Origin: an uncultured Parcubacteria group bacterium
Lineage (GTDB): Bacteria > Patescibacteriota > Patescibacteriia > UBA9934 > CAMTUG01
NCBI GenBank assembly: GCA_947084965.1
Contig: CAMTUG010000002.1
Span: forward strand, 79,434-143,433
Length of the DNA: 64,000 nt
Direction of reading: 5' to 3'
The translations under genes were made by a program, and so were the position numbers. The notes under the pieces were generated by a model. That model was not told where the DNA came from. It ran no database searches and was given only the letters and a program-made list of their open reading frames with translations. The stretch's first letter is position 1. Every line of letters begins with the position of its first letter. Positions 3,360 through 50,647 of this stretch are shown piece by piece.

Positions 3360-3686
3360 ATGAAGCTTAAAGTTGGCGACAAGGTCCGTATCATTACGGG
3401 CACAGAAAAAGGCAAAGAGGGGAAGATCACTCAGGTGTTCCCGAAGGATTCGCGTATCATTGTGGAAGCAATCAACGTCAAGACCAAGCATTTGAAGGGC
3501 CGCAAAGGCAGCGCTCAGAAGGGTCAGAAAGTTGAATTCGCCGCCCCAATCCATATTTCTAATGTTGCCCTCGTCGGTTCTTCCATCAAGTTCGGCCGCG
3601 TTGGAATGAAGATGTTGAAAAAAGACGGCAAACTGGTAAAGACCCGCGTCTTGCACAAGGCCGGTAAGGTTGAAGACATCGCCTAA
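3360..3686 (+). CDS. rplX: 50S ribosomal protein L24
   Basis: MKLKVGDKVRIITGTEKGKEGKITQV (KOW motif); ORF-track start 3222 is an in-frame extension into rplN. Confidence 0.88.
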   Translation: MKLKVGDKVRIITGTEKGKEGKITQVFPKDSRIIVEAINVKTKHLKGRKGSAQKGQKVEFAAPIHISNVALVGSSIKFGRVGMKMLKKDGKLVKTRVLHKAGKVEDIA

Positions 3687-8176: not shown

Positions 8177-8809
8177 ATGAAAAAGATCCTCTTATTTGGG
8201 CCCCAAGGTGCAGGCAAAGGCACGCAGGCAGAGCGTTTGGCAAAGCATTTGAATCTCCCTGCGCTGTCCATGGGTGATTTATTGCGTCGTGAGCAGGCGA
8301 AGGGGAGCGAAATCGGCCGACAGATCGTGGAGATTATGACCCACGGCGGGTTGGTATCTGATCAGATTGCGGTGGAGGTGCTCAAAGCTCGATTGAAAGA
8401 ACCGGATGCGGCCGGGGGGTACATTATCGACGGCTATCCGCGCAACATGGAGCAGTACAAGGCCTACGTCGCCTTTGATCACCCGACCGACGTCATCGTC
8501 ATCGACGTGCCAGACGAAGAGTCACTCAAACGTCTCGCTGGTCGTCGCACCTGTGTAGGTTGTGGCAAGGTCTATCACATTGATTTCGCCCGCCCTAAGG
8601 TGGCAGATATCTGCGATGTTTGTGGTGGATCGCTTGTGCAGCGCGAAGACGATAAGCCAGAAGCGATCCTGAAGCGTTTGGGGATTTATCATAACGAAAC
8701 AGAACCGATGGCCAAAGAATTTGAAGCCCTTGGTGTCCTCCGCCGAGTGGATGGAATGGGATCGATCGACGAGGTGGAAGCAAAAATTCAAATGGCCCTT
8801 GGAGTGTGA
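8177..8809 (+). CDS. adk: Adenylate kinase (zinc-lid type)
   Basis: MKKILLFGPQGAGKGTQAERLA (P-loop); CVGCGKVYH...CDVCGG zinc lid; ORF-track start 8108 is an N-terminal overcall. Confidence 0.9.
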   Translation: MKKILLFGPQGAGKGTQAERLAKHLNLPALSMGDLLRREQAKGSEIGRQIVEIMTHGGLVSDQIAVEVLKARLKEPDAAGGYIIDGYPRNMEQYKAYVAFDHPTDVIVIDVPDEESLKRLAGRRTCVGCGKVYHIDFARPKVADICDVCGGSLVQREDDKPEAILKRLGIYHNETEPMAKEFEALGVLRRVDGMGSIDEVEAKIQMALGV

Positions 8810-8927
8810 AAACTCGAAATGTGAAATCCGAAATTCGAAATAAATTTGAATCGGAGATAGAAAATGTTCAAATTCGAATTTTTCGGTTTCCGGTTGTTTC
8901 GAATTTTGGATTTCGGATTTAATACGT
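8810..8927. repeat. TTCGAAAT-rich inverted-repeat element, copy B
   Basis: gaaatccgaaattcgaaataaatttgaa ... ttcaaattcgaatttttcgg ... tttcgaattttggatttcggattt; the arms are reverse complements. Confidence 0.6.
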
Positions 8928-9722
8928 ATGGCGATGACTAAAACAACAGAAGAGATTGATGCGATTCGCGAAGGCGGGGCGTTATTGTCGCGTTCGTTGC
9001 AAACGGCGATCGATGCGGCCAAGCAAGGGGTGACACTGCGTCAGCTCGATAAGATTGCGGAAGAGGCGATTCGTGCCGGTGGAGGAACGCCGTCGTTTTT
9101 GGGATACAAATCGCGCAGTAGCGACGAAGGATTTCCTTCCACCGTTTGCATTTCGGTCAACGACGAAGTCGTTCATGGGTCGGGCGCACGCGATGTTGTT
9201 TTGAAAAATGGAGATCTCCTCGGACTCGATATCGGCTGTTGGTACAAAGGATTGTGCACGGACATGGCGGTGACGATTCCGGTCGGAGGGTTCAAGGCGA
9301 TCCCGGACAAGCACAAAGAGTTGTTAACGGTGACGCGGGCATCGATGATGGCTGGGATTGAGGTCGCACGTGTTGGTGGAGATATCAAAGATATTTCTCG
9401 GGCGATCGAAGAATACGTTCGACCGTTTAAGTTTGGGGTTGTCCGGGCATTAGTCGGACATGGGGTAGGGCACAAAGTTCACGAAGATCCGCACGTGCCG
9501 AATTTTATTTCGAACCAATTTCCTTCTGTGCCGATTCAGAGCGGAATGGTGTTGGCGATTGAGCCGATGCTGACGCTTGGCGGCTGGCAGGTAGAAACAG
9601 GGGATGACGGTTGGACGATCAAGACGGTCGATGGCTCACTCGGCGCGCATTTTGAGTTAACAATTGCGGTGACAAAGGATGGGGTGGAGATTTTGACCCC
9701 TCCGCCAAATGTGGGGTTTTAA
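8928..9722 (+). CDS. map: Methionine aminopeptidase type I
   Basis: pita-bread metalloprotease motifs ...DIGCWYKGLCTDMAVT...VGHGVGHKVHEDP... Confidence 0.9.
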   Translation: MAMTKTTEEIDAIREGGALLSRSLQTAIDAAKQGVTLRQLDKIAEEAIRAGGGTPSFLGYKSRSSDEGFPSTVCISVNDEVVHGSGARDVVLKNGDLLGLDIGCWYKGLCTDMAVTIPVGGFKAIPDKHKELLTVTRASMMAGIEVARVGGDIKDISRAIEEYVRPFKFGVVRALVGHGVGHKVHEDPHVPNFISNQFPSVPIQSGMVLAIEPMLTLGGWQVETGDDGWTIKTVDGSLGAHFELTIAVTKDGVEILTPPPNVGF

Positions 9723-9840
9723 ATTCGAAATACGAAATCCGAAATTCGAAACAAATTCAAAGTGGAAACAGGAAGTTTGCAAACTTTCCTTTTCCTATTT
9801 CTGATTGTTTCGAATCTCGACATTCGAATTTAGAGTTTCT
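9723..9840. repeat. TTCGAAAT-rich inverted-repeat element, copy C; contains perfect palindrome AAGTTTGCAAACTT
   Basis: aaattcgaaatacgaaatccgaaattcgaaacaa ... ggaagtttgcaaactttcc ... ttgtttcgaatctcgacattcgaattt. Confidence 0.6.
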
Positions 9841-10233
9841 ATGCGCTTACTAGGAATTGATTACGGACTAAAAAAGATTGGCCTCGCCATCGGTGACGAC
9901 GAAGCAGGCGTCGCCGCTCCGTTAGAGGTGATTAGAAATGATGGAGAGATGACGACGGAGCTTCTGGCTAAGCGTATTCGTGACGAAGAGATCGATGCAG
10001 TTGTTTGTGGGGCGCCCCTTTCACAGGGTGGACATCACTCGAGCGATCAACTCGATAAAACTCGCGCCTTCATGGAGTCGCTTCGGAAGCAGGTGACCAT
10101 TCCGGTGTACGAGGAGGATGAGAGTTACACCACCAAAGAAAGTATTCGCATCGCGCGCGAGGAAAAATCTGGGATCGACGAAGATGCGCTGGCGGCATCC
10201 CTAATTTTGCAACAGTTTTTGAACCGCACCTAA
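9841..10233 (+). CDS. ruvX: YqgF/RuvX-like putative pre-16S rRNA nuclease / Holliday junction resolvase-like
   Basis: MRLLGIDYGLKKIGLAIGDDEAGVAAPLEVI... RNase H-like YqgF signature. Confidence 0.8.
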   Translation: MRLLGIDYGLKKIGLAIGDDEAGVAAPLEVIRNDGEMTTELLAKRIRDEEIDAVVCGAPLSQGGHHSSDQLDKTRAFMESLRKQVTIPVYEEDESYTTKESIRIAREEKSGIDEDALAASLILQQFLNRT

Positions 10234-10240
10234 AAGCAAC

Positions 10241-10290
10241 GACCACCCCCGAGGAGTAGCGACGAGAGGGTCGCTGCATGGGGGTGGTCT
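10241..10290. terminator. GC-rich hairpin element (CGACCACCCCC ... GGGGGTGGTC) between convergent genes; member of a repeat family
   Basis: cgaccacccccgaggagtagcgacgagagggtcgctgcatgggggtggtc; ~40 nt of it recurs reverse-complemented at 50431-50480 and, related, at 48822-48882. Confidence 0.5.
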
Positions 10291-10304
10291 TGTCGTTCGG
10301 ACTA

Positions 10305-11273
10305 CTACTCGTCGTAGTAGTCGTCGGGGTACTCGTGGTCGGATGGTTCAAGGACCCCGTCTTCATAGCCGGTGCCGTCTTCGTCCTCCTTCGGCGGGAC
10401 GATCGGGAGGGCCTGGTCCTCGAAGACGACGATCCGGTCGTGGGCGTTCCGCTGGCCGGGCTTCTGCTCGCCGCGCCGGAAGGCGAGGGAGTAGGGCCCG
10501 ACCGAGGCGAAGACGAACATGTCCGGGTGGCGGGTCCGCTCGTTGCGGCCGACCGTGAGGTCGATCGCCGAGGCGCCGCTGCCGCTGTAGACCACGAGCG
10601 TCTCGCCGGGGAGCGGCACCACGCGGTGGCCGATGAACTCGCCGACGCGCTGGAAGTAGCTCCTGGGCCCGTGGATGTTTTCGACCCGCTCGCCGAGCCG
10701 CTCCTTGCTCCCGTTGCTGAAGACCCAGTGGTCGCGGGTCCACGGCTTCAGGGTGAGGGCCTGCTCCCACTCGACGGTCTCGCAGCCGAGGTAGTCGAGC
10801 TTGTTGAGCGCCAGCTTCATCTCCACCCCCTTCGCGGGGTCGGCGAAGGTGATGGTGACGATGGGGGTCTTGTTGCGGTCGATCCAGCCCTGCTTCACGG
10901 TCAGCGTCACGCCCTCCTTCGGGGTGAGGGTGATGACCTCGCCGTCGAGCTTGGCGCCGAAGGGCTCGCCATAGCGGACCGCGTCCTGCGCCCGACTGGA
11001 CTCGAATCGGTCGTTGTTGAACCGGTCGAAGTAGCCGCCGGGCCGGGGGAGGTAGACCCCGAGGCAGGACCCGAGCACCCGTTCGAGCTCGCTCCAGTTC
11101 TCGTTGGCTTCGAGCGCCATGCGGATCCCGCAGGCGACCATTCGGTGGTCGGTCCCGATCCCGACCCCGCGACCGTAGGGGTCGTAGATGTAGGTCGTGC
11201 TGACGGGCCGGCGGAAGCCGATGATCTGCTTCATGGACATCGGAAAATCCTCCTCTTCACGTGCGGAGTGCAC
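10305..11273 (-). CDS. Hypothetical protein in a strongly GC-rich, GC3-biased island (possible start at 11240, MSMKQ)
   Basis: 322 aa ORF; visibly higher GC than flanking ruvX/recO; acidic C-terminal tail; own TTGACA-N18-TAATCT promoter upstream. Confidence 0.6.
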   Translation of the reverse strand: MHSAREEEDFPMSMKQIIGFRRPVSTTYIYDPYGRGVGIGTDHRMVACGIRMALEANENWSELERVLGSCLGVYLPRPGGYFDRFNNDRFESSRAQDAVRYGEPFGAKLDGEVITLTPKEGVTLTVKQGWIDRNKTPIVTITFADPAKGVEMKLALNKLDYLGCETVEWEQALTLKPWTRDHWVFSNGSKERLGERVENIHGPRSYFQRVGEFIGHRVVPLPGETLVVYSGSGASAIDLTVGRNERTRHPDMFVFASVGPYSLAFRRGEQKPGQRNAHDRIVVFEDQALPIVPPKEDEDGTGYEDGVLEPSDHEYPDDYYDE

Positions 11274-11323
11274 GGTGGTGCTTCTCGCGCTTCATGCGCG
11301 GAAGTGGCCTAGATTAGCATCAA

Positions 11324-11351
11324 AAGCCGATTCTGTCAAGACAGAATCGGC
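11324..11351. promoter_or_regulatory. Perfect 13-2-13 palindrome overlapping the -35 box of the minus-strand promoter, in the divergent recO intergenic region
   Basis: agccgattctgtc aa gacagaatcggct; TGTCAA (=TTGACA on minus) lies in the right arm. Confidence 0.4.
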
Positions 11352-11372
11352 TGAATATGGGAAAATTGACTC

Positions 11373-12143
11373 ATGTCCGTAACCTTTCGCACTACTGGAA
11401 TCGTTATTGCCATGCGCGATCTGTTTGAACACGATCGTGTCTATTCGGTTTTAACCGCTGAGCACGGGAAGCTCGAGTTGCGTGCCCGCGGGTCGCGGAA
11501 GATCTCTTCGAAACTCTCGGCGCACCTCGAACCGTTCGCTCTTTGTGATCTGATGGTTGTGCGTGGACGATACGGTGACTTGGTTGCGGGCGTAGAGCGC
11601 CTCGAGTCGTATCGATCAATTCGTGCGGACATGGATAAGCTCGAACTCGCTTGGCACACCTTGGCGTTGGTCGAGATGTCGACGCGAGCGCGGCTACACG
11701 ATCCGGTGATGTTCGACGAAGTCCGTCGTTGGTTGACGTTCATTGATGGAGCGCCAGAGTTGACTGCAGATCGCGCGGCCTTTCTTTCTGGAAGTTTCAC
11801 CCTTAAACTCCTCGCCATTCTTGGGTTTCGTCCAGAACTTTTGTGTTGCGTGAACTGCGAACGCGGCATCGCCCCGATGGGCTACTCGTGGCACGGGTTG
11901 AAAGGGGGGGTCGTTTGTCGCGATTGCTGCAGTCGCGAGCCAGAGCAGTGGTTTTCTGCCCGCCGCATTGATGACAATTCGCTTAAGCTGATCCGCTACG
12001 CCATGAGCGAGCACTTCGAGCATCTCCTCGACATTCGTTTGCCAGGCCCGATTCTTTCTGAATATCACGCCGTCATTGAGTCCTTGGTGGTCGCACACTT
12101 TCCCGTTATTCCCACCGTCTCTTTTTCGCGCACTGCTGCCTAA
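11373..12143 (+). CDS. recO: DNA repair protein RecO
   Basis: OB-fold N-terminus and CCVNCERG...CRDCC zinc-finger C-terminus. Confidence 0.85.
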   Translation: MSVTFRTTGIVIAMRDLFEHDRVYSVLTAEHGKLELRARGSRKISSKLSAHLEPFALCDLMVVRGRYGDLVAGVERLESYRSIRADMDKLELAWHTLALVEMSTRARLHDPVMFDEVRRWLTFIDGAPELTADRAAFLSGSFTLKLLAILGFRPELLCCVNCERGIAPMGYSWHGLKGGVVCRDCCSREPEQWFSARRIDDNSLKLIRYAMSEHFEHLLDIRLPGPILSEYHAVIESLVVAHFPVIPTVSFSRTAA

Positions 12144-12403
12144 ATCACAACCCTACGCGCTCCGCCGAATCCCGCCACGACATAGATTTTTGCTCCTGAT
12201 ACCGGCTTCAGAAGCCGGTATCAGGAATGGCGCTTGACGATCAATCGGTGTGAGGGTAGTGTGATTGTAGGTATGCAGAAACGTCGATTCGACATCGCCA
12301 ATAATGATAATAACCAGCGTTCGCTGGCTTTCTTGGCATAATCGGGTGACGACATCGTATGCCAAAGAAGAACGCCAGCAGACCGCTGGTCGTTTTGTTT
12401 TAT

Positions 12404-12479
12404 TGGCCTGTAGTTTAATTGGCAAAACATTCCGCTGTTAACGGAAAGAGCGCAGGTTCGACTCCTGCCGGGCCAGCCA
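12404..12479 (+). tRNA. tRNA-Asn (GTT)
   Basis: Cloverleaf: acceptor TGGCCTG/CGGGCCA, anticodon loop CTGTTAA, T-arm GCAGGTTCGACTCCTGC, encoded CCA. Confidence 0.8.
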
Positions 12480-13825: not shown

Positions 13826-14980
13826 ATGGAAAAAAAGATCCTCCCCGCCATTGTGCTTATTTTGATCGCCGGGGCGATTGCCTACTGGAAGTTGTCGAAT
13901 CCGATCATGGATAAGCCGGTCGCTCCGGATACCTATATTGTTTGGAGTGCGACACGTGAAACGACGGATCGATCTGTTGACGATACTCCCGGTGCAGACG
14001 TTCTTTATACCTGCGATGCCTTTGCCTATCGTTACGCGATCGGGGCGGAGGAGATGCTTCAACTGGATCGCATCACTGCGGAGGCGAGTGGCTGTGATTA
14101 TCCCTACAGCTTTGTTCCTGCCACTGAACTTGTCTACACGTATTCCGATTATCGTTTGAATTTGAATGGGAAAAAGTTTGCTTGGGAAGACCCAGGGAAG
14201 CTTGGTGTGGAGGGATATGGTACAGGCGAGCTGCATGTCTATTCCGAGTACATGATGCCAGACAACGACACGATTGTGACGCTCGTCCCGCGTGAAGGGG
14301 AGAGTACTCAGTTTACGATTCAGAATGAGAATTATATCAGCAGGCCGTATTACCTCTCCCCAATCGCAGTAAGCGATGACGGCACGCAGATCTATTTTGG
14401 AGAGTTCACCGAAGCGAGCGGATCCCTTCGTTTCGGAATTCATGTCCATGTCTATAATGTGGCCGTGGGGAGCATGACTCGGATTGCCTACGGCAATGAT
14501 CTGCTCGTGAGTGACTTTGTGTTCGATACGGCAGGGAAGCGCATGCTGGTTATTTCAGGAACGCGCCAGGTGAATGAAGAAGCGCCTGGGTGGGATGAAG
14601 TGATCGGACCGAGCCAGTTACATCTTGTTGATTTAGTGACCGGCAAAGGGAAGATTCTCGGTGTAGAAACAACGGACGAAGCAATTCTTACGTCTCCACG
14701 TTTCTCCCCGGTGAATGCTGATACGTTCTCGGCCGAATCAAACGGGGTGACGCACATGATTACCGTAGATGCGGATGGACTCATCACCGACGGTAATGAT
14801 ATCACTGGTCGCATCGTCGACTGGACGGACGACATTCTTGTTCTGGCCGGTCCTTCGCGCTACATGATTTTTGACCCGACAGGAAAGATATTTCTTGGAG
14901 CGACGAACTGGGCGGACTTCGATCTGACGGATGGCAGCTTTGGCTTCCAGTACCTTGGTTCGGCCACCATCTCAGAATAA
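13826..14980 (+). CDS. Membrane-anchored hypothetical protein (N-terminal TM; possibly beta-propeller-like), paralog 1
   Basis: MEKKILPAIVLILIAGAIAYWKL TM; shares GPSxLHLxDL and W.DD motifs with the next ORF. Confidence 0.6.
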   Translation: MEKKILPAIVLILIAGAIAYWKLSNPIMDKPVAPDTYIVWSATRETTDRSVDDTPGADVLYTCDAFAYRYAIGAEEMLQLDRITAEASGCDYPYSFVPATELVYTYSDYRLNLNGKKFAWEDPGKLGVEGYGTGELHVYSEYMMPDNDTIVTLVPREGESTQFTIQNENYISRPYYLSPIAVSDDGTQIYFGEFTEASGSLRFGIHVHVYNVAVGSMTRIAYGNDLLVSDFVFDTAGKRMLVISGTRQVNEEAPGWDEVIGPSQLHLVDLVTGKGKILGVETTDEAILTSPRFSPVNADTFSAESNGVTHMITVDADGLITDGNDITGRIVDWTDDILVLAGPSRYMIFDPTGKIFLGATNWADFDLTDGSFGFQYLGSATISE

Positions 14981-17491: not shown

Positions 17492-17509
17492 TAAGCAGAA
17501 AGCGGAGAC

Positions 17510-18211
17510 ATGAAATTCGAAATCAAACTTGATGCCTTCAGCGGGCCGCTGCAATTACTCCTCGAGCTTGTCGAGAAGCAAGATTTGCCGATCACCGAAG
17601 TGGCGCTGGCGAAGGTAACAGAAGATTACTTGAAGCATCTCGAAGCAAACGAGGTGCCTTCAAGTGAATTGGCAGATTTTCTCGTTGTTGCTGCACGGTT
17701 GTTGTATCTCAAGTCCGCAGCGATCTTGCCGACCCCTCCGGCCGAGGAAGAAGATGCTGGTGCACTCGCCGCTCAGCTCAAGCTGTACAAAGAATTCGTC
17801 GTCGCTACAGAATATGTCGATGCTCTTTATCGCGCCGGCCGCGTGAGTTACGGTCGACCGGTGAACGCCACCAAACTTCCGGTTGTGACCGCGTTCCGTC
17901 CACCCGAGAATGCCACGCCGTCAGCCTTGCAATCCCTCTTCGCCACTCTCCTGAAGCGCCTTGAGCCGTTTTTCACCTTGCAGCAAACGACGATGCATAA
18001 GATTGTGAGCGTGCAGGAGCGCATCAAACAGATTCGCGAAGTGTTGCTCGAACGTGCCCAGATGTCTTTCAAAGACATCACAAAGGGGGCGGGGTCGAGG
18101 ATCGAAGTTGTGGTTAGCTTCCTCGCTCTGCTAGAATTGATGAAGCAGAAAGCCATCATGGCTGTACAGTCGTCAGCATTCGGGGACATTGAGCTCAAGA
18201 GGGTGGATTAA
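17510..18211 (+). CDS. scpA: Segregation and condensation protein A
   Basis: MKFEIKLDAFSGPLQLLLELVEKQDLPITEVALAKVTEDYL. Confidence 0.85.
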   Translation: MKFEIKLDAFSGPLQLLLELVEKQDLPITEVALAKVTEDYLKHLEANEVPSSELADFLVVAARLLYLKSAAILPTPPAEEEDAGALAAQLKLYKEFVVATEYVDALYRAGRVSYGRPVNATKLPVVTAFRPPENATPSALQSLFATLLKRLEPFFTLQQTTMHKIVSVQERIKQIREVLLERAQMSFKDITKGAGSRIEVVVSFLALLELMKQKAIMAVQSSAFGDIELKRVD

Positions 18212-23814: not shown

Positions 23815-25047
23815 ATGCGTTCGCTCGACCTTCTACGGACTTCTACAGACTCCTTGCGCCGCAACACCTCGCGGTCATTGTTGACCGTGCTCGGGATCGT
23901 CATCGGCATCGGCGCGGTTATTTTGATGCTTTCGATCGGACAAGGGGCGCAGGGGTACGTGCTCAGCCAAGTTTCTGATCTCGGGTCGGATCTGGTTTTT
24001 GTGGAGGCAGGGAACGGGGGTGGAAGCTCTGGTCCCCCATCTCCTTTTATTGAACAGACGATCACGCTTGATGACGCCAAGGCGCTTGAAGAGGATGGTC
24101 CCTTCTCGTTCGTGTCGTCTGTAGTGATTACCACCACAACGGTCTCCGCAGAACAGGATTCAACGTTCACGGATATCGCTGGAGTCGATCAATATCAGCT
24201 CGACGTCTTTCCAGCAGACGTTGTCTCTGGTCGATTTATTGAAGGCGAAGATGTGGACAGTCATGCGCGAGTGGCTGTGCTTGGCTCGGAGATTGCTGAG
24301 CAGTTGTTTGGTGACCAAGATCCGATTGGAGAACGGATCGAGGTCAAGAATCTTTCTGTACGGGTGATCGGTGTGCTTGGCGAGCAGGGGAGTAAGTTTT
24401 TTTCGAACCTCGATAAGCGCGTTTATTTGCCAGTCACTACCGCCCAACGCGAGTTGCTCGGTGTCACCTACGTCAATTATATTTCTGCCCGTTCGATCGG
24501 TGACATTGAATCGGCCAAAGAGGACGCCCGGGCTATTTTGCGCGATGCGCACAATTTAGATAATCCCGAGCAGGACCTGGCCAAGGATGACTTTATCGTC
24601 TCGTCACAGTCTGATGCGGTGGCGATTATTGGGGGTGTCGGGTTTGCCTTGACCCTGTTGCTCGCTTCGATCGCGGCGATCTCATTGCTCGTTGGAGGGA
24701 TCGGGATTATGAACATCATGCTTGTCTCCGTCACCGAGCGTACCCGCGAGATCGGTTTGCGCAAAGCGATCGGAGCGACCGAATCAGAAGTTTTGCGTCA
24801 GTTTTTGCTTGAAGCGGTGATCCTCACCATGTTTGGTGGGGTGATCGGGATCGTTGGTGGTGTTGGGACTTCGGCTTTAGCCGCGGCTGTGCTTTCGCAA
24901 TTTGTTGAAGGATGGCAGTTCATCATTCCGCCATCCGCTGTCATCGCTTCGGTTGCTGTCGCTACCCTTGTTGGGATCGCCTTCGGTTATTATCCTGCCC
25001 GTCGCGCCGCCCGCCTCGACCCGATCGAAGCACTGCGTTACGAGTAA
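23815..25047 (+). CDS. ABC transporter permease, FtsX/MacB-like
   Basis: TM1, large periplasmic domain, C-terminal 3-TM FtsX bundle; TAATATG junction with the ATPase gene. Confidence 0.85.
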   Translation: MRSLDLLRTSTDSLRRNTSRSLLTVLGIVIGIGAVILMLSIGQGAQGYVLSQVSDLGSDLVFVEAGNGGGSSGPPSPFIEQTITLDDAKALEEDGPFSFVSSVVITTTTVSAEQDSTFTDIAGVDQYQLDVFPADVVSGRFIEGEDVDSHARVAVLGSEIAEQLFGDQDPIGERIEVKNLSVRVIGVLGEQGSKFFSNLDKRVYLPVTTAQRELLGVTYVNYISARSIGDIESAKEDARAILRDAHNLDNPEQDLAKDDFIVSSQSDAVAIIGGVGFALTLLLASIAAISLLVGGIGIMNIMLVSVTERTREIGLRKAIGATESEVLRQFLLEAVILTMFGGVIGIVGGVGTSALAAAVLSQFVEGWQFIIPPSAVIASVAVATLVGIAFGYYPARRAARLDPIEALRYE

Positions 25048-25100
25048 TTGCAATATTTAAAGCGGTTCGGTAAGGTGGGGCGGCCCAACCAGGAGTCCAC

Positions 25101-25997
25101 ATGTCCGACCCTTTCCGCATCATCCAGTTCGGTCCCCGTCACGGACAGTCGAATGGATCGCCCGTCCTGATCGAGGTCGCCCACGGGGCTACGACCATGC
25201 TCCAGTACGCCCGCACCCTCGGGCTCCTCCGGGGTTTGTACCCTACCAGCCTGCTCGACTTCTTCCTGGTCAACACGGACCAGGGGGCGCCTGAGCTGGC
25301 CATGGAGATCGGCAGGCAGATCGTCGACGCCCATCCGGGGCGGTCGGTGACGATCATGATCGCCGAGGTTCCCCGGACGTTCATCGACTTCAACCGGATC
25401 CCTGGCGTGACGGCCGAGGCGGCCAAGGCCGGTGGGGTCACCCCCGGGCTCCAGCCCTGGGTCACGAACCCGGACGACGTCAAGCTCCTGACCGGGTTCC
25501 ACCGCGCCTACCACGCGAAGCTCGGGCCGATCGTTGATCAGGTCTGCGAAGCGGGTGGCACGATGCTCGCGCTTCACACCTACGCCCCGCGGTCGGTCGA
25601 CGTCGAAGCTATCGACGAGCGGATCGGGGAGCGCATGCGCGAGGCTTGGTCCGGCAACGTCGAGCGCTGGCCCCTGCGTCCGGAGATCGATCTCATCGGT
25701 CGCGACAAGTGGGAAGGGGATGACCGGCCGTGGATGGTCGTGCCCGCCGTTCTCACCCGTCTGCGCGCTGAGTTCCTGCCGCTCGAACTCGAGGTTGCAG
25801 ACTCCGTGTCCTACCATCTGGCGGACGTCACCATGGCGCGTCAGTACCGCGACCGCTACCCCGAGCAGGTCATCTGCCTCGAGGTGCGTCGCGATCTGCT
25901 CACGGGGTGGTGGCTACCCTTCGCGCAGATGATCCCTGATTCGTTTCGGATCCGGCGCATCGGCGAGGCTCTTGCCCACGCCCTGTTTCTCTTCTAG
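25101..25997 (+). CDS. Hypothetical protein in a GC-rich island (possible amidohydrolase-like; unverified)
   Basis: 298 aa, visibly GC-rich with strong GC3 bias; followed by a perfect 10-bp hairpin ggccaccc-ttactc-gggtggcc. Confidence 0.55.
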   Translation: MSDPFRIIQFGPRHGQSNGSPVLIEVAHGATTMLQYARTLGLLRGLYPTSLLDFFLVNTDQGAPELAMEIGRQIVDAHPGRSVTIMIAEVPRTFIDFNRIPGVTAEAAKAGGVTPGLQPWVTNPDDVKLLTGFHRAYHAKLGPIVDQVCEAGGTMLALHTYAPRSVDVEAIDERIGERMREAWSGNVERWPLRPEIDLIGRDKWEGDDRPWMVVPAVLTRLRAEFLPLELEVADSVSYHLADVTMARQYRDRYPEQVICLEVRRDLLTGWWLPFAQMIPDSFRIRRIGEALAHALFLF

Positions 25998-26054
25998 ATT
26001 CGGTCGCTCCTTCGCGATCGCCCAAGGCCACCCTTACTCGGGTGGCCTTCGACG

Positions 26055-27338
26055 TTATGGAGCGGGTTCGTCAGGGGTAATATCGATCGGTGGGGTGCGG
26101 TGAACGATCGAATGGAGGATCGGTTTGATGATAAAGAGAAGGCCGATCTGTCCGACCACCAAGAAGAGAAGGCCGAAGCGGATCCCGACCACGGGTGAGC
26201 TCACGGCGAGCGACCACACTAGGAGAAGTCCACCGAGGCGGCCAATGTTCAAAAAGAATTCCCGATCCATCAAATAGACAAATCGATGCTGCGCCCCTTG
26301 AGCACTGAACTGATCGACGAGTTCGTACATCACCGCCGCGAGTGATGGCCAGCGGAACGTATTGGTAAGCGCGCTGATGGCAAAGTAAATAATCGCACCG
26401 ACCGAGGAGAAGAGGACAGCAAAGATCCCTCCACCAACGAGGGTTCCAAGCATCCATACGACCAGGATGAGGAGATGATTGCGATGTTTCACGTGGCGTC
26501 CGATCAGTCCCAAGAGGACAACGCCGACGATGGCGGTTGCTGTCTCAATCGTGCCGACAACTTCCTCAGCACCCAGGAAGGTGAGGGTAATAACGACAGG
26601 GAGGATTGTTTCGACCCCACCGATGAATCCGTGGCAGACCTCAAGGAAACGTTGGCGTTGCCACAGTGCGGCTGGGTTTTGTAGAAAGATCTGTTTCAGC
26701 GGTGTTGAGCACGGTGGGAGATCAGCGCGATAGACGACGAGTCCAGCGGCACCGAGCGTCAGGATGGCGATGACGGAGACAAACCAGTAGGCAGCGCCCG
26801 TTGAGTAGAGCCCGTAGAGGTCACCAAAGCCGATGATCCAACCGATCGAAATCGGGGCGATGATTCCAGCGACGGTGTCCACGATCCCTTCTAAGCTCAA
26901 AAAGTAAAAGCGATGGGATCCGCTTGTGACTTTGGAGAGAAGGTAGTTACGATTCGCCCAGTAGAATCCTCCAGAGACCCCAAGAACGACACCGAGGAGA
27001 AAGGCGAAGTCAGCGGCAGCTTCTCCTAAAGCGACCATCGCAAGCGGCACGACCCCGACCATCACAGAACCAACGACATACAGCACGGGCGTGTCGGTCC
27101 AGCGCAGGAGGATCGCATTCAAGAAAAACCCGATCGACAGAGCGGCAAAAAATCCGGCATTATACAGAATCAGGAGGGTCACGTTCTCCTCGATTCTCCA
27201 CAGAAAGGTGTTCATGTAGGTGAAGGCGATCGGGGAGGCGAGGCCGTACAGAAAGTAGGAAACCAAAAATCGCCGCTCTGTGCCGGAGAGGATATTGAAA
27301 TGGTTGCGTTGACTCTGGAACCAGGATTTGATGGACAT
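26055..27338 (-). CDS. Polytopic membrane transporter, MFS-like (12 predicted TM)
   Basis: Start set at MSIKSWF; the ORF-track 5' extension to 27482 overlaps a tRNA-Leu gene and is rejected. Confidence 0.6.
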   Translation of the reverse strand: MSIKSWFQSQRNHFNILSGTERRFLVSYFLYGLASPIAFTYMNTFLWRIEENVTLLILYNAGFFAALSIGFFLNAILLRWTDTPVLYVVGSVMVGVVPLAMVALGEAAADFAFLLGVVLGVSGGFYWANRNYLLSKVTSGSHRFYFLSLEGIVDTVAGIIAPISIGWIIGFGDLYGLYSTGAAYWFVSVIAILTLGAAGLVVYRADLPPCSTPLKQIFLQNPAALWQRQRFLEVCHGFIGGVETILPVVITLTFLGAEEVVGTIETATAIVGVVLLGLIGRHVKHRNHLLILVVWMLGTLVGGGIFAVLFSSVGAIIYFAISALTNTFRWPSLAAVMYELVDQFSAQGAQHRFVYLMDREFFLNIGRLGGLLLVWSLAVSSPVVGIRFGLLFLVVGQIGLLFIIKPILHSIVHRTPPIDITPDEPAP

Positions 27339-31973: not shown

Positions 31974-32037
31974 AGCGTATCTATCTAACGTAGTGAAATT
32001 TAAGCTTTTTGTAAAGCAGGACCCCCACGTGACGTAC

Positions 32038-32628
32038 TCACGCGGGGGTTCCGTTCTTGATGATCCCGGCTTCGACCAGGACCTTGTAGAGGTTGGGGGA
32101 GATGGGAAGACCATCTTCGGTCTGACCCGCCTTGATCTCGGTGGTAGTGACGAATCGCGCCATGGGGGACTTGGCTGCCTCCTGTTCGATGCGTCGCATG
32201 ACCTGTCGGGCCAGGGACATGACCACGAGGACGTAGAAGTAGATCGCCAGCTGACCACGGCTGTCCATCTCCTGGTGCGGAAGGGGAGGGGTCTTTCTCT
32301 GGATCTTCATCTTTGTCTTGTGGAGTTCCCGATCAATGAGTCCGTAGGCGACCAGCTCCTGGTTCAAGCGGCGGCGGATGGCACGGTCGCGGGACTCTCG
32401 GCCTACCATCGGTTGGGAGAACCCGGCGATCGTCGCTGCCATCGCCCGAGCGGTCGTGGCCTCGACGTGGACCGGCTCACCGTTGCTGTTCCCGTCGGCA
32501 GAGGTGTAGTGCACCCGCCCTCCTGGAAGGAAGAACCAGGCGCGCGGGGCTCTGTGCATGAGCAGGAGGAAGCGCCCCTGCTCGTCACGGATGATGGCTT
32601 TCACCATCAACTTCATCATGACGGACAT
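32038..32628 (-). CDS. Hypothetical NUDIX-like protein in a GC-rich island
   Basis: AIIRDEQGRFLLLMHRAPRAWFFLPGG resembles a NUDIX N-terminus, but no canonical REx2EE box; visibly higher GC than its neighbours. Confidence 0.45.
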   Translation of the reverse strand: MSVMMKLMVKAIIRDEQGRFLLLMHRAPRAWFFLPGGRVHYTSADGNSNGEPVHVEATTARAMAATIAGFSQPMVGRESRDRAIRRRLNQELVAYGLIDRELHKTKMKIQRKTPPLPHQEMDSRGQLAIYFYVLVVMSLARQVMRRIEQEAAKSPMARFVTTTEIKAGQTEDGLPISPNLYKVLVEAGIIKNGTPA

Positions 32629-32845
32629 GGAGGACTCCTGGGTTGGTCAGTCGCCACAATCATGGCAGATCTGCACAAAAAGTCAACGGTTGCCCCGGGA
32701 GGCAGTTTTCGATATACTGGAGGCATAATCATCAACTATGCCTCCAAGGAATGTTCGTGCGGGGAGAGCCGGTGGCGACCCAGGTGTGGGTGGCAGAGGC
32801 GGCCGCGATCGCAGCGTTGCTGCTCGAAGGAATGCAGAACCTGCC

Positions 32846-34078
32846 ATGCCTCGCATTTCGCCGGAGAAGCAGGCACTTGTTGATGCGGAACATGCCCGAG
32901 AACGAGCGGAGCGTGTTGTCCAACTGCGAGCAGAGGTTCGGGCAACAGAGGCCCGAGAAGAGGAACGGACCAGAAAAGCCGTGGAGCGAGCCAGTCGAAA
33001 TCCAGAGGATTTTTCCGTAGGCTTCTCGACGCATGACGGGGCTGACGGTGCAACTGAGGTCACCCTTTCCCTTCGTGGATCTGACGGTCAGGAAATTGAC
33101 CTCAAGGAATATCTCTCTGAGTTGGAGGATTTCGACGTTCGTCTTTCGCCGGATGGCGCCTTTCATTTTCAAGACAAGCCCGCCGATCGGCCAGACGCCA
33201 AGGCTGTTATTTTAATCCCCGAACGCTTAACGAGTGATGCCGGCAGTCCAGAAGATTCCGCCCGTAGATTGCTCGAGGTCGCTGAAGCGATCATCGGGAG
33301 AGAGAAGGAAAAAAAGGTGGCGGAGGCCCGGGAAAAACTCGAACATGAGCTGGTGCATATTTACGAAGGTCACGCGCACGAGCCGCCAGTGCGTTGGGCG
33401 GATCGGGTCGAACATTGGGCGGCGGAGTTTCCGAGCAAGCACCTTTTTTGGGATGATAAGGCGAAAGACTATAAAAAACTTGAGGATGCCTACGCCAAGG
33501 CAGATCGTGAACGTGAAGCGTACGTTTCCGAAAAGTTGCAGGGATTTGCTGACGCTTTAAAGAACGGTGAAAATGTCGATCTTGAAGCGGTCCTGGGTGG
33601 TATCTCCGCCAGGCCTGCGGATACCAATCTGATTTTCAGTGGTCCGCAGAGCGAAGGTCGAGGATCGTTTGAGCAGAATGATTCGGTGCGAACGCGTGTG
33701 GTCGATGCGGTCTGGGATAAAAGGGATGCAGAAGGAAGTCAGCGGCTTATTCCTCGTGCTGCTCGAGCGACGGGGCGCTTCCTTCATCGTGACGTGGGGG
33801 CGGTAACGAGGACGATGGGTGGCGTGGCTCTCGGTGCGGGGATAGGACTCGTTGTCGCTGGATGGAAGATGGGTGGACGGTTTTTATATAAGCAGCTTTC
33901 TCGTTTCTTCCATAACGTCGTCGGTGCAGAAGATCACCCGCATTCGACGGTGCCGGTTTTCGGAGGGGCCATTGATTGGCTCCAAGGGAAGATGAGAGGA
34001 TTTTCTGAGGAGGTTCTTCCTCTGCTTGATGAGAAGGGTGCGGGCGGGCACGGAGGGGGAGGAGGCGCACATCATTAG
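32846..34078 (+). CDS. Hypothetical charged coiled-coil protein with C-terminal TM and Gly/His tail
   Basis: Start set at MPRISPEKQ; GGVALGAGIGLVVAGW TM near the C-terminus. Confidence 0.5.
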   Translation: MPRISPEKQALVDAEHARERAERVVQLRAEVRATEAREEERTRKAVERASRNPEDFSVGFSTHDGADGATEVTLSLRGSDGQEIDLKEYLSELEDFDVRLSPDGAFHFQDKPADRPDAKAVILIPERLTSDAGSPEDSARRLLEVAEAIIGREKEKKVAEAREKLEHELVHIYEGHAHEPPVRWADRVEHWAAEFPSKHLFWDDKAKDYKKLEDAYAKADREREAYVSEKLQGFADALKNGENVDLEAVLGGISARPADTNLIFSGPQSEGRGSFEQNDSVRTRVVDAVWDKRDAEGSQRLIPRAARATGRFLHRDVGAVTRTMGGVALGAGIGLVVAGWKMGGRFLYKQLSRFFHNVVGAEDHPHSTVPVFGGAIDWLQGKMRGFSEEVLPLLDEKGAGGHGGGGGAHH

Positions 34079-48260: not shown

Positions 48261-48289
48261 TTGACAAAGTTACATTTTTATGCTATTTT
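48261..48289 (+). promoter_or_regulatory. Sigma70-like promoter TTGACA-N17-TATTTT (shared type with 49019-49047)
   Basis: ttgacaaagttacatttttatgctatttt; RBS aaggaggaagg before ATG 48321. Confidence 0.45.
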
Positions 48290-48320
48290 TCTTGACCACC
48301 AAGGCAAGGAGGAAGGAAAG

Positions 48321-48818
48321 ATGCGTCGTTATTTTATCGGCATCGGCGGTCTCATGGCCGCTGGATTTGCAGGGATCGCCGTGGCGATGGTTTCTGTCCA
48401 CAGACAGTGGCAGGCAGACGTCGCGGCGGCTGAGGCGGCCCAAGCTGAGTGGGTCGCTGAGCGGGCGGAGATCGCCGAGCGCGAAGCGGTCGCGCGCAAG
48501 GCCGAGGAGCAGAAGGAGCTCATCGGCGAGGCGATGGCCAACCTGACGGGGGGCTGGAACCCCTGGATCGTCGACTCGATCGACCAGGTCCAGAACCCCG
48601 AGTTCGTCGCGCTCTTCCTGGTCGTCCGCGCCCAGCGGGACGAGCAGAGCAAGGCGCTCGACGAGCTGCTCGAGAAGGAGCCGTGCGCCAGCCGGTTCGA
48701 GAAGCCGGGCTACAAGGAGCGCTGCGACAAGCTCTTCGACGCCCTGTCCCTCGAGACCTTCGCCCCGATCAAGCCCAACCTCGACCGCATCCAGGAGATC
48801 GCCAACACGTACAACTAG
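48321..48818 (+). CDS. GC-rich membrane-anchored coiled-coil hypothetical protein
   Basis: MRRYFIGIGGLMAAGFAGIAVAMV TM then Ala/Glu-rich helix; visibly GC-rich; ORF-track start 48261 is the -35 box. Confidence 0.55.
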   Translation: MRRYFIGIGGLMAAGFAGIAVAMVSVHRQWQADVAAAEAAQAEWVAERAEIAEREAVARKAEEQKELIGEAMANLTGGWNPWIVDSIDQVQNPEFVALFLVVRAQRDEQSKALDELLEKEPCASRFEKPGYKERCDKLFDALSLETFAPIKPNLDRIQEIANTYN

Positions 48819-48821
48819 TAC

Positions 48822-48882
48822 GACCACCCCCAGCGGCCACCCTCGTCGCACTCTCGGGGGTGGTCGCTGCATTTCATGCAGC
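48822..48882 (+). terminator. GC-rich tandem hairpins (GACCACCCCC...GGGGGTGGTC then GCTGCATTTCATGCAGC), repeat family
   Basis: cgaccacccccagcggccaccctcgtcgcactctcgggggtggtcgctgcatttcatgcagc. Confidence 0.5.
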
Positions 48883-48944
48883 CACAGGGGCTTCCGCCCC
48901 TCTGGTCGTCGCTCCGCTCCTGTCACCCTCAGCAGGTAAGGGGA

Positions 48945-48970
48945 GATATCTCCCCTTACCATCCCCTCCG
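48945..48970. repeat. Perfect 26-bp palindrome
   Basis: ggtaaggggagatatctccccttacc. Confidence 0.5.
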
Positions 48971-49018
48971 CCCACGCTTCGCGTGGTCGCTGCATTTTAG
49001 CTACTTTAGCCACGAACG

Positions 49019-49047
49019 TTGACAAAGTCGACTTTTTGTGTTATTTT
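49019..49047 (+). promoter_or_regulatory. Sigma70-like promoter TTGACA-N17-TATTTT, near-identical to 48261-48289
   Basis: ttgacaaagtcgactttttgtgttatttt; preceded by a partial copy gtggtcgctgcatttta of the 3' repeat. Confidence 0.45.
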
Positions 49048-49164
49048 CGGCCCTCTGGCAATCCCGCCAGATGTGTCGACCGGATTGGGAACGGGGTTTT
49101 CCGTTGCCCTTTTCGCTCGGCCCTTACACCGTTTGGATGCAATAGGCCAAACGCTGGAGGTCTC

Positions 49165-50394
49165 GTGTTTCTGCCCACTTGGATCCCCTGGTGGATCGGC
49201 TTTCTGCAGCCGGCTTCGAAGCTGCAGCGCATGATGGAAGCGTGTTCCATCGTCATCATGGCCGTGTTCACGGCCTGGTGCGTCATCAACAACGTGGAGC
49301 CCACGGTCACCGAGCAGGACCAGGCCCGTCGCGACGCGGACGTCATCGCCGTCCAGTACGAGGCCCGCTGCAGCATTTACACCCTCGCCGAGATGGGCTC
49401 TTGGCCGTCCAAGCCGTGGACGAAGGCCAAGAACATGTGGGGCAGCAACCCCGGGTGTGGCGCCCTCGGCCAGAACTTCCTCCACTTCTTCACCAAGGGC
49501 TACCCCGACGGTGGGGGACGTTCGCCGGCCGTCTTCTGGTGGAACAACGATCGCCCGGCGGTCGCGCTCTACCAGGAGTGGTGGAAGGAGCGTGAGCGGC
49601 ACTACGAGCGGGAATGGGACAAGAAGGAAAAGGCCGAGCTCGCCAAGGCGGACGCCGCGTTCGAAGCGGCGCTCGTGAAGGCCGACGAGAGTGAGCGGTT
49701 TCAGCTCGTGCTCATCGAGACCGCCAAGCGCACCGTCGGCTGGTGGGTCGGCGGGCTCGTCGTGATCGCCATGATCGTGGGGTGCATCTACGGGTGGCTT
49801 CGCATGATCAACCACCGCTTCATCACGCACTGCGGTGTCTGGGCTGGCGGCGACTGCCTGGCCGAGGTGGTGATCCCGCGCTACCCGTTCGGGCGGCCGA
49901 AGATCACCGGTCGCTTCGACAAGGCCTGGAGGGCGGTCGTCAACTTCCGCGGCCAGACGGTGCTCGCCGACCGCCTGGGCAACCGGGTCGTCATCGGAGA
50001 GAACGGCACCTCCACGACGATCAACATGATCCTGCACCCGAGCCTCCCCGCCTACCTGAAGGCGGTCGTCAATCAGTCCAGCACCCAGGCGGTGACCATC
50101 CGTCAGCAGGGGGAGCAGATCGCCCAGCTCGAGGCGGCGGCGCAGAAGCAGAAGCAGTGGATCGACTGGTACCGCGATGAGATCCGGGCGCGCAACCGCC
50201 TGCTCGTCCTCGCCATCGAAGGGATGCGGAAGTCGAAGGACTTCCAGCGTCTCGGCGTGGTCCAGACGATGCGCGAGCGCCTGCTCGAGCGGATGCGCGA
50301 AGAGCTCAAGGACGACAAGGAGCTCTGGGCCGCGATCGGGGAGCGCGAGGAGGAAGAGGGGCTGTCCGTCAAGCCCCCGACCGAAGACAACTAG
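49165..50394 (+). CDS. GC-rich hypothetical membrane-anchored protein (GTG start after GGAGG)
   Basis: ctggaggtctcGTG; N-terminal hydrophobic segments, central TM, C-terminal coiled coil; visibly GC-rich; ORF-track start 49036 lies in the 5' UTR. Confidence 0.5.
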   Translation: MFLPTWIPWWIGFLQPASKLQRMMEACSIVIMAVFTAWCVINNVEPTVTEQDQARRDADVIAVQYEARCSIYTLAEMGSWPSKPWTKAKNMWGSNPGCGALGQNFLHFFTKGYPDGGGRSPAVFWWNNDRPAVALYQEWWKERERHYEREWDKKEKAELAKADAAFEAALVKADESERFQLVLIETAKRTVGWWVGGLVVIAMIVGCIYGWLRMINHRFITHCGVWAGGDCLAEVVIPRYPFGRPKITGRFDKAWRAVVNFRGQTVLADRLGNRVVIGENGTSTTINMILHPSLPAYLKAVVNQSSTQAVTIRQQGEQIAQLEAAAQKQKQWIDWYRDEIRARNRLLVLAIEGMRKSKDFQRLGVVQTMRERLLERMREELKDDKELWAAIGEREEEEGLSVKPPTEDN

Positions 50395-50430
50395 GCGACC
50401 GTACGGGTCGCCCCTAGACCGACCATCCCC

Positions 50431-50480
50431 AAGCAGCGATCATCCTCGTCGCTACTCCTCGGGGGTGGTCGTTTGCATTT
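50431..50480 (+). repeat. Conserved 3' element (reverse-complement match to 10241-10290)
   Basis: aagcagcgatcatcctcgtcgctactcctcgggggtggtcgtttgcattt. Confidence 0.5.
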
Positions 50481-50647
50481 TTAGGATCGGCCGCGAAATT
50501 CGTGATCTTTCGGCTTGCGGGCCCCTGCCACCTCTTCGGCGTACGTTTTTGGTACGCCTCAGAGGATGGCATCCCGCGCGCCGAAATCTCATCGAATTTG
50601 GCGACCGATCGGCTAGGAAGTGAAGGTGCTTGAAAATTAAACTGTCG

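Follow-up and report, generated by a model that had tools for sequence, protein, structure and literature searches.

The stretch of DNA analyzed here (the window; 64,000 nucleotides (nt) of contig CAMTUG010000002.1 from an uncultured Parcubacteria group bacterium) contains, between ruvX and recO and on the minus strand, a single GC-rich gene that we designate X. Positions 10232–11339 of the minus strand are probably best described as an autonomous, monocistronic expression cassette that has long been resident at this site, with its own promoter, a folded leader, a coding sequence (CDS) in which third codon positions are saturated with G and C, and a terminator. A 5′ hairpin, a GC-rich body and a 3′ hairpin would together be expected to give a long-lived and strongly transcribed mRNA. 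The protein that it encodes belongs to a family that, in our searches, is found only in Patescibacteria, has no known function and matches no known fold. The genes on either side were identified by Pfam as RuvX (PF03652) and RecO (PF11967/PF02565).

The composition of X sets it apart from its neighbors in several ways. First, the island at positions 10220–11323 has a GC content of 0.661, against a window mean of 0.538 (200-nt windows), and the X CDS itself reaches 0.676, with values at the first, second and third codon positions (GC1, GC2 and GC3) of 0.645, 0.428 and 0.955, which is the normal order GC3>GC1>GC2; the SecY, Adk, Map, RuvX, RecO and AsnRS genes have GC contents of 0.52–0.55 and GC3 values of about 0.57–0.66, so that an initial annotation of this DNA, which described a GC-rich minus-strand gene between housekeeping genes of lower GC, is borne out. 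Second, the third positions of X are made up of C (0.62) and G (0.33) with very little A (0.03) or T (0.02), the latter two together accounting for 5%, and the preferred codons (CTC, GTC, CCC and AAG) are unlike those of the host. Third, the ribosomal-protein genes in the window do not have this bias (GC3 is 0.61, and C/(C+T) at two-fold degenerate sites is 0.60 as opposed to 0.98 in X), which rules out translational codon optimization of the host type as the cause of the high GC3.

The CDS extends from 11240 to 10305 on the minus strand and encodes 311 amino acids (aa), beginning MSMKQIIGFRRP and ending YPDDYYDE, of which about 285 residues make up a globular alpha/beta body and the final 25 or so a disordered acidic and aromatic tail. 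The initial annotation gave a 322-aa protein, and an open reading frame (ORF) of that length is indeed present from a GTG at 11273, but this GTG is part of a conserved hairpin in the leader, and reading from it translates part of the 5′ leader. The orthologs start at an ATG behind a GGAGGA Shine-Dalgarno (SD) sequence, and the start of X is hence the ATG at 11240.

The complementary strand is also open, and the question arises of which strand is read. A 344-aa ORF on the plus strand (10278–11312) covers the whole island, is collinear with ruvX and recO, and is annotated as a gene in the public Logan gene call of contig L001 (positions 547–1581), which overlays the window with no mismatches; the antisense frame is likewise open across the whole gene in four of 11 homologs. 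These features would fit a ruvX-ORF-recO operon in which the plus-strand ORF is the real gene, or an arrangement in which both strands code, but we consider either to be extremely unlikely. The codon-position GC values of the plus-strand ORF (GC1, GC2 and GC3 of 0.922, 0.435 and 0.646) are the mirror image of those of a GC3-rich gene, and homology, the SD sequence, the promoter, the terminator and a confident AlphaFold2 (AF2) fold all lie on the minus strand. Furthermore, the antisense frame is broken in seven of the 11 homologs, including the syntenic ortholog on contig L004, where no more than 189 of 308 codons are open in succession and where the gene caller picked the X strand for the corresponding protein (P0001). 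That the frame is open in only four of the 11 also rules out a conserved antisense gene as the cause of the high GC3. As judged from these comparisons, the mirror ORF arises from GC3 saturation and is not a gene, and the call in L001 is on the wrong strand, with the consequence that the real protein X is missing from the 5.8-billion-protein collection.

The initial annotation took the region to be a regulated, horizontally acquired insertion, and comparison of the locus with that of one relative argues against recent acquisition. The 25.8-kb contig L004 has the order secY-adk-map-ruvX, then X on the opposite strand, then recO-asnS, and X in this position is P0001, the closest homolog identified. 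The ruvX-X-recO arrangement is thus present there with a similar GC excess, as the L004 gene has a GC content of 0.628 and a GC3 of 0.82 compared with 0.51–0.53 in its flanks. Between the window and L004 the encoded proteins are 70% (SecY), 71% (Adk), 76% (Map), 80% (AsnRS), 63% (RuvX) and 59% (RecO) identical, two hypothetical proteins are 61% and 42% identical (the latter being hyp375), and X is 47% identical; the leader is 81% and the terminator 74% identical. On this evidence X is a fast-evolving but syntenic ortholog, and the sequence comparison places it as an old resident of the site, dating back at least to the split between this lineage and that of L004, rather than a recent insertion. 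No flanking direct repeats corresponding to target-site duplications were found around X, and there is no integrase or transposase among the genes adjoining it (the window was not scanned systematically for such genes); the nearest tRNA is a tRNA-Asn at 12404, beyond recO. Searches of viral contigs, a phage collection and plasmids yielded no relatives of X. What stands of the earlier description is therefore an independent, evidently regulated monocistronic unit of deviant composition, but not its recent arrival.

Homologs of X also occupy other sites. They are in the interval between pth and dprA in L002 and L013, follow recG in L014/15 and a sigma-70-like gene in L003, are close to lexA and dinB in L017, sit among housekeeping genes in L019, and otherwise come from short contigs (L005–9, L016 and L018). 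Flanking sequence is available for 12 family loci, and in each of them the GC content of the gene exceeds that of its flanks, by 0.08–0.23, with host GC contents ranging from 0.39 to 0.58 (the gene/flank values are 0.676/0.536, 0.628/0.515, 0.61/0.45, 0.65/0.416, 0.592/0.511, 0.504/0.426, 0.551/0.394, 0.635/0.48, 0.668/0.558, 0.605/0.495, 0.663/0.58 and 0.64/0.537). The amelioration model of Lawrence and Ochman from 1997 is said to predict that a foreign composition that is not maintained drifts toward that of the host. With housekeeping proteins 60–80% identical between the window and L004, synonymous sites should be saturated, and GC3 values of 0.82–0.96 would then not be an un-ameliorated relic but would have to be maintained. 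We infer that the excess GC3 is actively kept by selection or a biased process acting on the gene family, and is not the leftover of a recent transfer.

The alternative is that X is a foreign gene from a high-GC donor, either as a recent insertion or because the allele at this site has been exchanged repeatedly for copies from a GC-rich mobile pool, the conserved leader and terminator providing the homology arms. Such an origin would account for a codon usage that is unlike the host's and departs in a different direction from that of the ribosomal-protein genes, and for the presence within 64 kb of four GC-rich islands, three of which share a promoter type and terminator and all of which encode orphan-like proteins. 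It would also fit the observation that, between the window and L004, the leader (81%) and terminator (74%) have diverged less than the CDS (47% at the amino acid level). Moreover, metagenome-assembled genomes of Patescibacteria are reported to contain many genomic islands, with most of the single-gene transfers being between Patescibacteria (PMC12455944). Nonetheless, we regard a foreign origin as unlikely. The slot in L004 is filled by the 47% ortholog, whose divergence is within the range of vertically inherited neighbors (42% for hyp375 and 59% for RecO); all of the family contexts seen are lower-GC, Patescibacteria-like genomes and no homolog was seen on a GC-rich contig; and the promoter is AT-rich, with a sigma-70 consensus usable by the host polymerase. 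The absence of viral, phage or plasmid relatives, of target-site duplications, and of an adjoining integrase or transposase points the same way, as does the expectation that foreign GC3 that was not maintained should have ameliorated at saturated synonymous sites.

Several points weigh against the proposal of a long-resident cassette with maintained composition. Synteny at the ruvX–recO site is drawn from one relative, L004, and none of the explanations tested accounts for how GC3 stays high. Repeated allele replacement from a GC-rich pool is compatible with the data, the better conservation of the leader and terminator relative to the CDS being the sole positive evidence for it. Finally, the promoter, transcription start, terminator and pseudoknot described below are all deduced from sequence.

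Three observations were made at the other loci. L002 (CAYVLY010000001.1) is titled 'uncultured Gammaproteobacteria', yet its gene order lytR-der-pth-X-dprA-folC-topA is that of the Patescibacteria contig L013, and the bin is probably mislabeled. Relative to L013 it has an extra gene of about 175–198 aa between pth and the X homolog (9182–9778), and the terminator of this gene (9770–9830) is near-identical to that of the X homolog (CACCCCCAC...GTGGGGGTTCTGCTTTTTT), which looks like the gain of a cassette beside X. In L003, from a Patescibacteria metagenome-assembled genome, the X homolog (8767–9756) lacks the conserved leader, follows a sigma-70-family gene, and is itself followed by a HicA-like toxin gene (10917–11288).

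The predicted X promoter (11311–11339, minus strand), of the sigma-70 type and close to consensus, consists of a −35 box TTGACA (11339–11334), a 17-nt spacer with a TGC extended −10 element, and a −10 box TAATCT (11316–11311). The promoter proposed in the initial annotation is thus present, with a spacer of 17 nt and not 18. A generic promoter scan missed it because the −10 box matches just three of the six consensus bases. A promoter of the same type was nevertheless read upstream of the homolog in 11 of 12 distinct related loci, the form common to the family having TTGACA/T at −35, a T-rich spacer of 17 nt, and then TGn and TAnnnT; a hairpin that is rich in GC and has a T-run is likewise recurrent. 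The pattern TTGACW-N14-TGN-TANNNT occurs three times in the window where 0.03 occurrences are expected, and each is directly upstream of a GC-rich gene, namely X and the genes for proteins of 165 aa and 387 aa.

The putative intrinsic terminator of X (10232–10297, minus strand) has an outer stem ACCACCCCC/GGGGGTGGT and an inner stem GCGAC/GTCGC followed by GCUUUU, with a predicted folding energy of −32.7 kcal/mol (z −3.45) and perfect 10-nt arms at 10241–10250 and 10280–10289 ahead of the UUUU. The U-run overlaps the stop codon of ruvX (10231–10233), so the convergent X and ruvX abut the terminator. Two features indicate that this hairpin is shared, as had been noted in the initial annotation. 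First, the window contains a perfect 29-nt reverse complement copy at 50445–50473 and a 22-nt copy at 48853–48874, within homologous terminators at 48816–48885 and 50395–50492, and a further homologous terminator is downstream of the L004 ortholog. Second, the pattern CCACCCC-N-GGGGTGG occurs twice in the window with an expectation of 0.00. The CCACCCCC...GGGGGTGG terminators of X and of two sister genes have predicted energies of −32.7, −36.1 and −42.6 kcal/mol.

The sister genes are in one of three further GC-rich islands in the window (24993–26103, 32016–32998 and 48288–50547, the last holding two membrane orphans). One plus-strand cassette (48261–48885) encodes a 165-aa membrane protein (CDS 48321–48818) and has a promoter and terminator of the X families. 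The other (49019–50492, plus strand) encodes an orphan membrane protein of 387–409 aa (CDS 49231–50394 from an internal ATG) and has an X-type promoter and the 29-nt terminator copy; the 387-aa protein finds only itself among 5.8 billion proteins. In the island at 24993–26103, the gene at 25101–25997 is FGase-like (PF05013, 2.8e-7) and has a related GGCCACCC/GGGTGGCC hairpin. None of the sister cassette proteins was found in the viral, phage and plasmid searches, and none was found to co-occur with X in other loci. A perfect 13-0-13 palindrome (GGTAAGGGGAGAT|ATCTCCCCTTACC) is situated between the two sister cassettes at 48935–48960.

Two known types of unit resemble this arrangement. Phage morons were reportedly described in 2000 by Juhala and Hendrix as autonomous promoter-ORF-terminator units of deviant composition located between genes. 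Like them, X is one ORF supplied with a sigma-70 promoter and a factor-independent terminator of its own, deviant in composition and situated between two unrelated genes, and there are several such units per genome with common expression signals. Unlike a moron, X is not in a prophage, as its flanks are core genes (ribosomal-protein genes, secY, adk, map, ruvX, recO and asnS), its slot is kept in a relative with housekeeping proteins 59–80% identical, its composition is maintained throughout the family, and it has no phage relatives. An integron cassette likewise comprises one ORF with an imperfect palindromic element (attC) behind it, and within one genome the cassettes have similar elements. 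Unlike such a cassette, however, X has its own promoter, its hairpin is followed by a U-run and is terminator-like, there is no intI and no array, and the X-type copies are dispersed, at 10 kb and at 48–50 kb. The reading of the shared hairpin as attC was rejected, in that its ends, tccgAAC and GTTGCTT, misfit the RYYYAAC/GTTRRRY core sites.

A leader of about 65 nt is common to eight loci, which represent at least five contexts. Within the window the motif GYGCAYYCYGCAYGWGAAGARG occurs only once (0.01 expected), and it is present just upstream of the X homolog in L002, L004, L005, L006–8, L009, L013 and L016, and a covariance model finds the leader only upstream of X homologs and nowhere else in 199 kb. 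The leader contains two predicted hairpins. The first (11281–11304, minus strand; CUUCCGCGC-AUGAA-GCGCGAGAAG) starts 7 nt after the −10 box, placing it at or beside the predicted mRNA 5′ end, and it starts 5–9 nt after the −10 box across the loci. Its sequence varies while the pairing is kept: individual minimum free energy folds recover it in seven of eight loci, five of nine pairs are changed on both sides, and 83% of cells pair compared with 27–62% in slid-partner controls. Hairpin 1 may act as a 5′ stabilizer. The E. coli ompA and the B. subtilis aprE and ermC leaders have 5′-terminal stabilizer stem-loops, and hairpin 1 resembles these in being a few nt from the predicted +1 and in keeping its pairing with free sequence, the transcription start of X differing in being predicted from its sequence.

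The second hairpin (11260–11274, minus strand; CGUGC-ACUCC-GCACG) has a loop, CUCC, that is complementary to the GGAG of the SD sequence. This SD sequence, GGAGGA at 11248–11253 (minus strand), is 7 nt before the ATG at 11240, and its GGAG would form the 3′ strand of a pseudoknot. The consensus of hairpin 2, CGYGC-AYYCY-GCAYG, is conserved in sequence in the eight loci, and its loop co-varies with the SD sequence 12 nt downstream, as CUCC/GGAG in the window and L004, UCCC/GGGA in L002, L013, L006 and L016, and UCCU/AGGA in L009. Three of the four pairs of this loop-SD helix are changed on both sides, and 96.9% of cells pair. The geometry read from the alignment, with an S1 of 5 bp, an L1 of 1 nt, an S2 of 4 bp and an L3 of 6 nt, is sterically ordinary for an H-type pseudoknot. 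Together these features suggest that hairpin 2 and the SD sequence form a candidate H-type pseudoknot that hides the ribosome-binding site; translation would then be gated by the pseudoknot, and opening it would require a factor acting in trans, possibly protein X.

Pseudoknots of this class that sequester the SD sequence include the T4 gene 32 and S15 leaders and the preQ1-I/II, SAM-II and fluoride riboswitches. The X leader is like them in that a small hairpin loop pairs with a downstream purine-rich ribosome-binding site, directly ahead of the start codon and with textbook H-type geometry. It differs in having no Rfam match at E values up to 10 and a consensus, CGYGC-AYYCY-GCAYG-WGAAGARG, that is not theirs, and in being known here from its sequence alone. 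Rfam gave no match at the gathering threshold for the window and five loci, and permissive filters gave only chance-level matches (E at least 3.3). The leader motif was not found in the viral, phage and plasmid searches, and the three matches in JGI metagenomes are all by chance, inside GC-rich contigs with no X homolog.

Some of the evidence tells against the folded leader. The hairpin 2 stem is never changed on both sides, and the covariation is drawn from eight sequences representing about five independent lineages. The model to which the alignment was fitted comprised the two hairpins and not the loop-SD pairing, and the fold energies relative to shuffled sequences are modest (z −1 to −2.3). 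The more distant members L003, L014, L017, L018 and L019 are without the conserved leader.

Overlapping the −35 box of X is a perfect 13-2-13 palindrome (AGCCGATTCTGTC-AA-GACAGAATCGGCT; 11325–11352), one base from the coordinates given in the initial annotation, which had described it as operator-like. It also overlaps the −35 box of a putative divergent recO promoter (11338–11375, plus strand), AAGACA-N17-GAAAAT-N6-ATG, whose predicted start is at or beside the recO ATG at 11373. This composite pattern is present once in the window and is the same in L004 (reverse strand, 11018–11055), in both cases before homologous RecO N-termini (MSVTFRT... and MSSTFRT...). As the −10 box is 6 nt before the ATG, the predicted transcript starts at or beside the ATG, and recO mRNA is apparently leaderless with a conserved promoter. 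In L004 the RecO start chosen by the gene caller (273 aa) is probably six codons too early. The −35 boxes of X and recO are positioned back-to-back, which explains the palindrome core TGTC-NN-GACA, and the palindrome may thus represent two overlapping −35 boxes at which either RNA polymerase or a dimeric repressor would couple both genes. The arms of the palindrome reach symmetrically into both spacers, however, and the promoters do not require that.

A classical operator, at which a dimeric repressor would occupy both −35 boxes on binding TTYTGTC-NN-GACARAA and repress X and recO together, as part for instance of a DNA-damage or competence regulon, is therefore a possibility to be taken seriously, albeit one that we think doubtful. 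The symmetry is perfect and far beyond chance: the 64 kb contains seven perfect palindromes with arms of at least 10 nt where mononucleotide shuffles give 0–2. Both position and symmetry are kept in L004, where the counterpart CTTTTTGTC-TT-GACAAAAAG is a perfect 9-2-9 palindrome in the same position with six of nine half-site bases the same, and the arms extend beyond what the promoters need. Against these are the lack of a second site in the 64 kb (eight matches at up to three mismatches, compared with 9.6 expected) and the absence of the palindrome upstream of X homologs in other genomic contexts, both of which also weigh against the proposed reading of the cassette as a whole. It is, in addition, unlike the GTTC-N7-GTTC sequence upstream of lexA in L003 and L017. 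The sequence UUUUGAU comes after the hairpin on the X strand in both genomes, which would allow the hairpin to act instead at the RNA level or as an insulating terminator. Indeed, the palindrome could alternatively be an RNA or DNA hairpin, having a predicted energy as RNA of −19.6 to −20.8 kcal/mol (z −6 to −7) and resembling a generic terminator in a chance-level Rfam match. The operator-like character thus holds as far as conservation of position and symmetry in L004 is concerned, but the other contexts and the rest of the window lack the site, and its core is accounted for by the two −35 boxes.

A regulon defined by the palindrome site was not found in the window. A LexA box upstream of X was also considered and none was seen, in that GTTC-N7-GTTC is absent ahead of X in the window and in L003 and L017, bearing in mind that the LexA box of the phylum is not established. 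The GTTC-N7-GTTC direct repeats just upstream of lexA in these two Patescibacteria contigs (L003, about 14640–14660; L017, about 3580–3600) may be the LexA box of this group, and resemble that of alphaproteobacteria. A second perfect palindrome (16-1-16, with no T-run on either side) is present after recO at 12194–12226, and recO is thus bracketed by two perfect palindromes.

An exhaustive HMMER search of 1.84 billion representatives identified 25 homologs of protein X of about 300 aa, the best with an E value of 1e-83, in clusters of one or two members each. A word-indexed search found none with the single protein X, and a profile gave only P0025. Two source names were seen for the family, both "hypothetical protein [Patescibacteria group bacterium]". 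The conserved blocks are QIxAWRxP, GSxERLGxR, PLxGExLVVY, HPDxxVFASVG and DRIVVFxDxxLPIxPP, and the near-invariant residues are R11, L183, R186, P210, E214, Y219, H239, A246, G249 and D276, among which no catalytic motif was recognized. The AF2 model of X is confident (mean predicted local distance difference test score (pLDDT) 83.5, predicted template modeling score (pTM) 0.80), with residues 290–312 of the 312-residue query below a pLDDT of 50, and that of P0002, which is 32% identical to X, has the same order of secondary-structure elements (pLDDT 84.3, pTM 0.78).

Neither sequence nor structure connects the family to anything described. Pfam, NCBIfam, PHROGs and PADLOC returned no family for X, and 21 members gave only isolated chance-level matches; a profile search of the PDB produced no match (E at least 0.23). 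The initial annotation was accordingly correct in finding no motif that could be assigned. Foldseek searches against the PDB (twice) and BFVD gave no meaningful match for the X or P0002 models, the recurrent weak matches to ACT-domain and phosphagen-kinase sheets (TM <0.2) having no weight, and the suggested capsid or encapsulin-like (HK97) fold was not among them. The homology and structure searches that had been called for thus yielded 25 relatives but no known family or fold.

The tail offers a possible indication of function. The acidic DEYPDDYYDE terminus noted earlier is as described, the last 27 residues having a net charge of −13 and four aromatic residues, while the body (residues 1–285) has a net charge of +3. 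An acidic, aromatic-rich tail (...WEDEY, ...YPDEY, ...YFDGF or ...YYDE) follows the LPIxPP linker in 18 of the 18 full-length members of alignment A1; the other three members end ahead of it. Acidic C-terminal tails are a feature of E. coli SSB (DDDIPF), T7 gp2.5 and T4 gp32, and that of X is similar to these in being disordered and rich in Asp and Glu with aromatics near the C-terminus, and follows a Pro-rich linker. In addition, the immediate neighbors of X are recO and ruvX in the window and L004, dprA in L002 and L013, and recG in L014/15, with lexA and dinB a few genes away in L017; RecO, RecG and DprA are known clients of SSB tails or recombination mediators. The tail and these neighbors provide a weak lead to single-stranded DNA recombination or DNA uptake, in which X might, as an outside possibility suggested by analogy, be an abundant binding or adaptor protein acting through its SSB-like tail.

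There are also differences from the SSB-type proteins. X has no detected OB fold or known DNA-binding fold and a body charge of just +3, and the consensus of its tail is ...W/Y-x-D-E-Y and not the IPF motif. Counting against the lead are the failure of Foldseek to detect an OB fold or other nucleic-acid-binding fold and the weakness of the neighbor association: recombination genes adjoin X in three of about nine independent contexts (a rough binomial estimate gives P of about 0.01 if some 3% of genes serve recombination or repair), and none of the pairs is operonic.

Alternatively, X could be a fast-evolving conflict gene for phage defense or counter-defense, or an effector secreted toward a host bacterium and exported or recognized by way of its acidic tail. 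This would be consistent with its divergence, which is faster than that of most neighbors (47%), with its rarity, restriction to one lineage and clusters of one or two members, with its stand-alone cassette, and with the location of the L014 homolog among type IV secretion or conjugation genes. It seems improbable, however, given that PADLOC and PHROGs provide no match, that among 21 members only one matches a conflict-related family (AbiEii, E 0.0013), that the X sequence has no visible signal peptide or transmembrane segment, and that there is no partner gene or defense island among its housekeeping neighbors.

What appears to be new here is a GC3 excess that is maintained, the promoter and terminator combination in common with the sister orphan cassettes, the candidate pseudoknot leader, the back-to-back recO promoter and the wrong-strand annotation, and these have implications in four areas. 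First, for annotation, GC3-saturated genes in genomes of intermediate GC can be lost systematically through wrong-strand calls. Second, a gene whose GC exceeds that of its genome by 8–23 points in 12 of 12 lineages, a syntenic pair with 47% identity among them, contradicts the usual equation of GC-deviant with recently transferred, and calls for an explanation by selection or a biased process. Third, the leader is a compact candidate for a translational pseudoknot regulator in a phylum in which, to our knowledge, almost no cis-regulatory RNAs are known. Fourth, X is confidently foldable and restricted to Patescibacteria, and is unmatched by sequence or by Foldseek against the PDB and BFVD. The practical impact is moderate, since X is still without an assigned function.

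A broader proposal, which is speculative and which we regard as improbable, is that Patescibacteria have an undescribed class of compositionally insulated cassettes, each with a promoter of the extended −10 kind, an orphan ORF saturated in GC3 and a C-run/G-run terminator shared between them. In these the GC3 saturation might be actively maintained, for the sake of a long-lived, RNase-resistant mRNA or of translation confined to tRNAs for G/C-ending codons, instead of stemming from a donor, and X might combine a new riboregulator (a 5′ stabilizer hairpin and an SD-sequestering pseudoknot) with a new-fold, SSB-tailed protein that acts with RecO, DprA and RecG in DNA uptake or repair.

The window also contains repeats of another kind. 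Intergenic arrays of TTCGAAAT-like units are present at 2893–2978, 8810–8921, 9721–9838 and 17499–17524. Two 112-nt array copies, in the spacers between adk and map and between map and ruvX, are 73% alike, and a 59-nt inverted repeat (9721–9779 and 9780–9838) is positioned directly upstream of ruvX.

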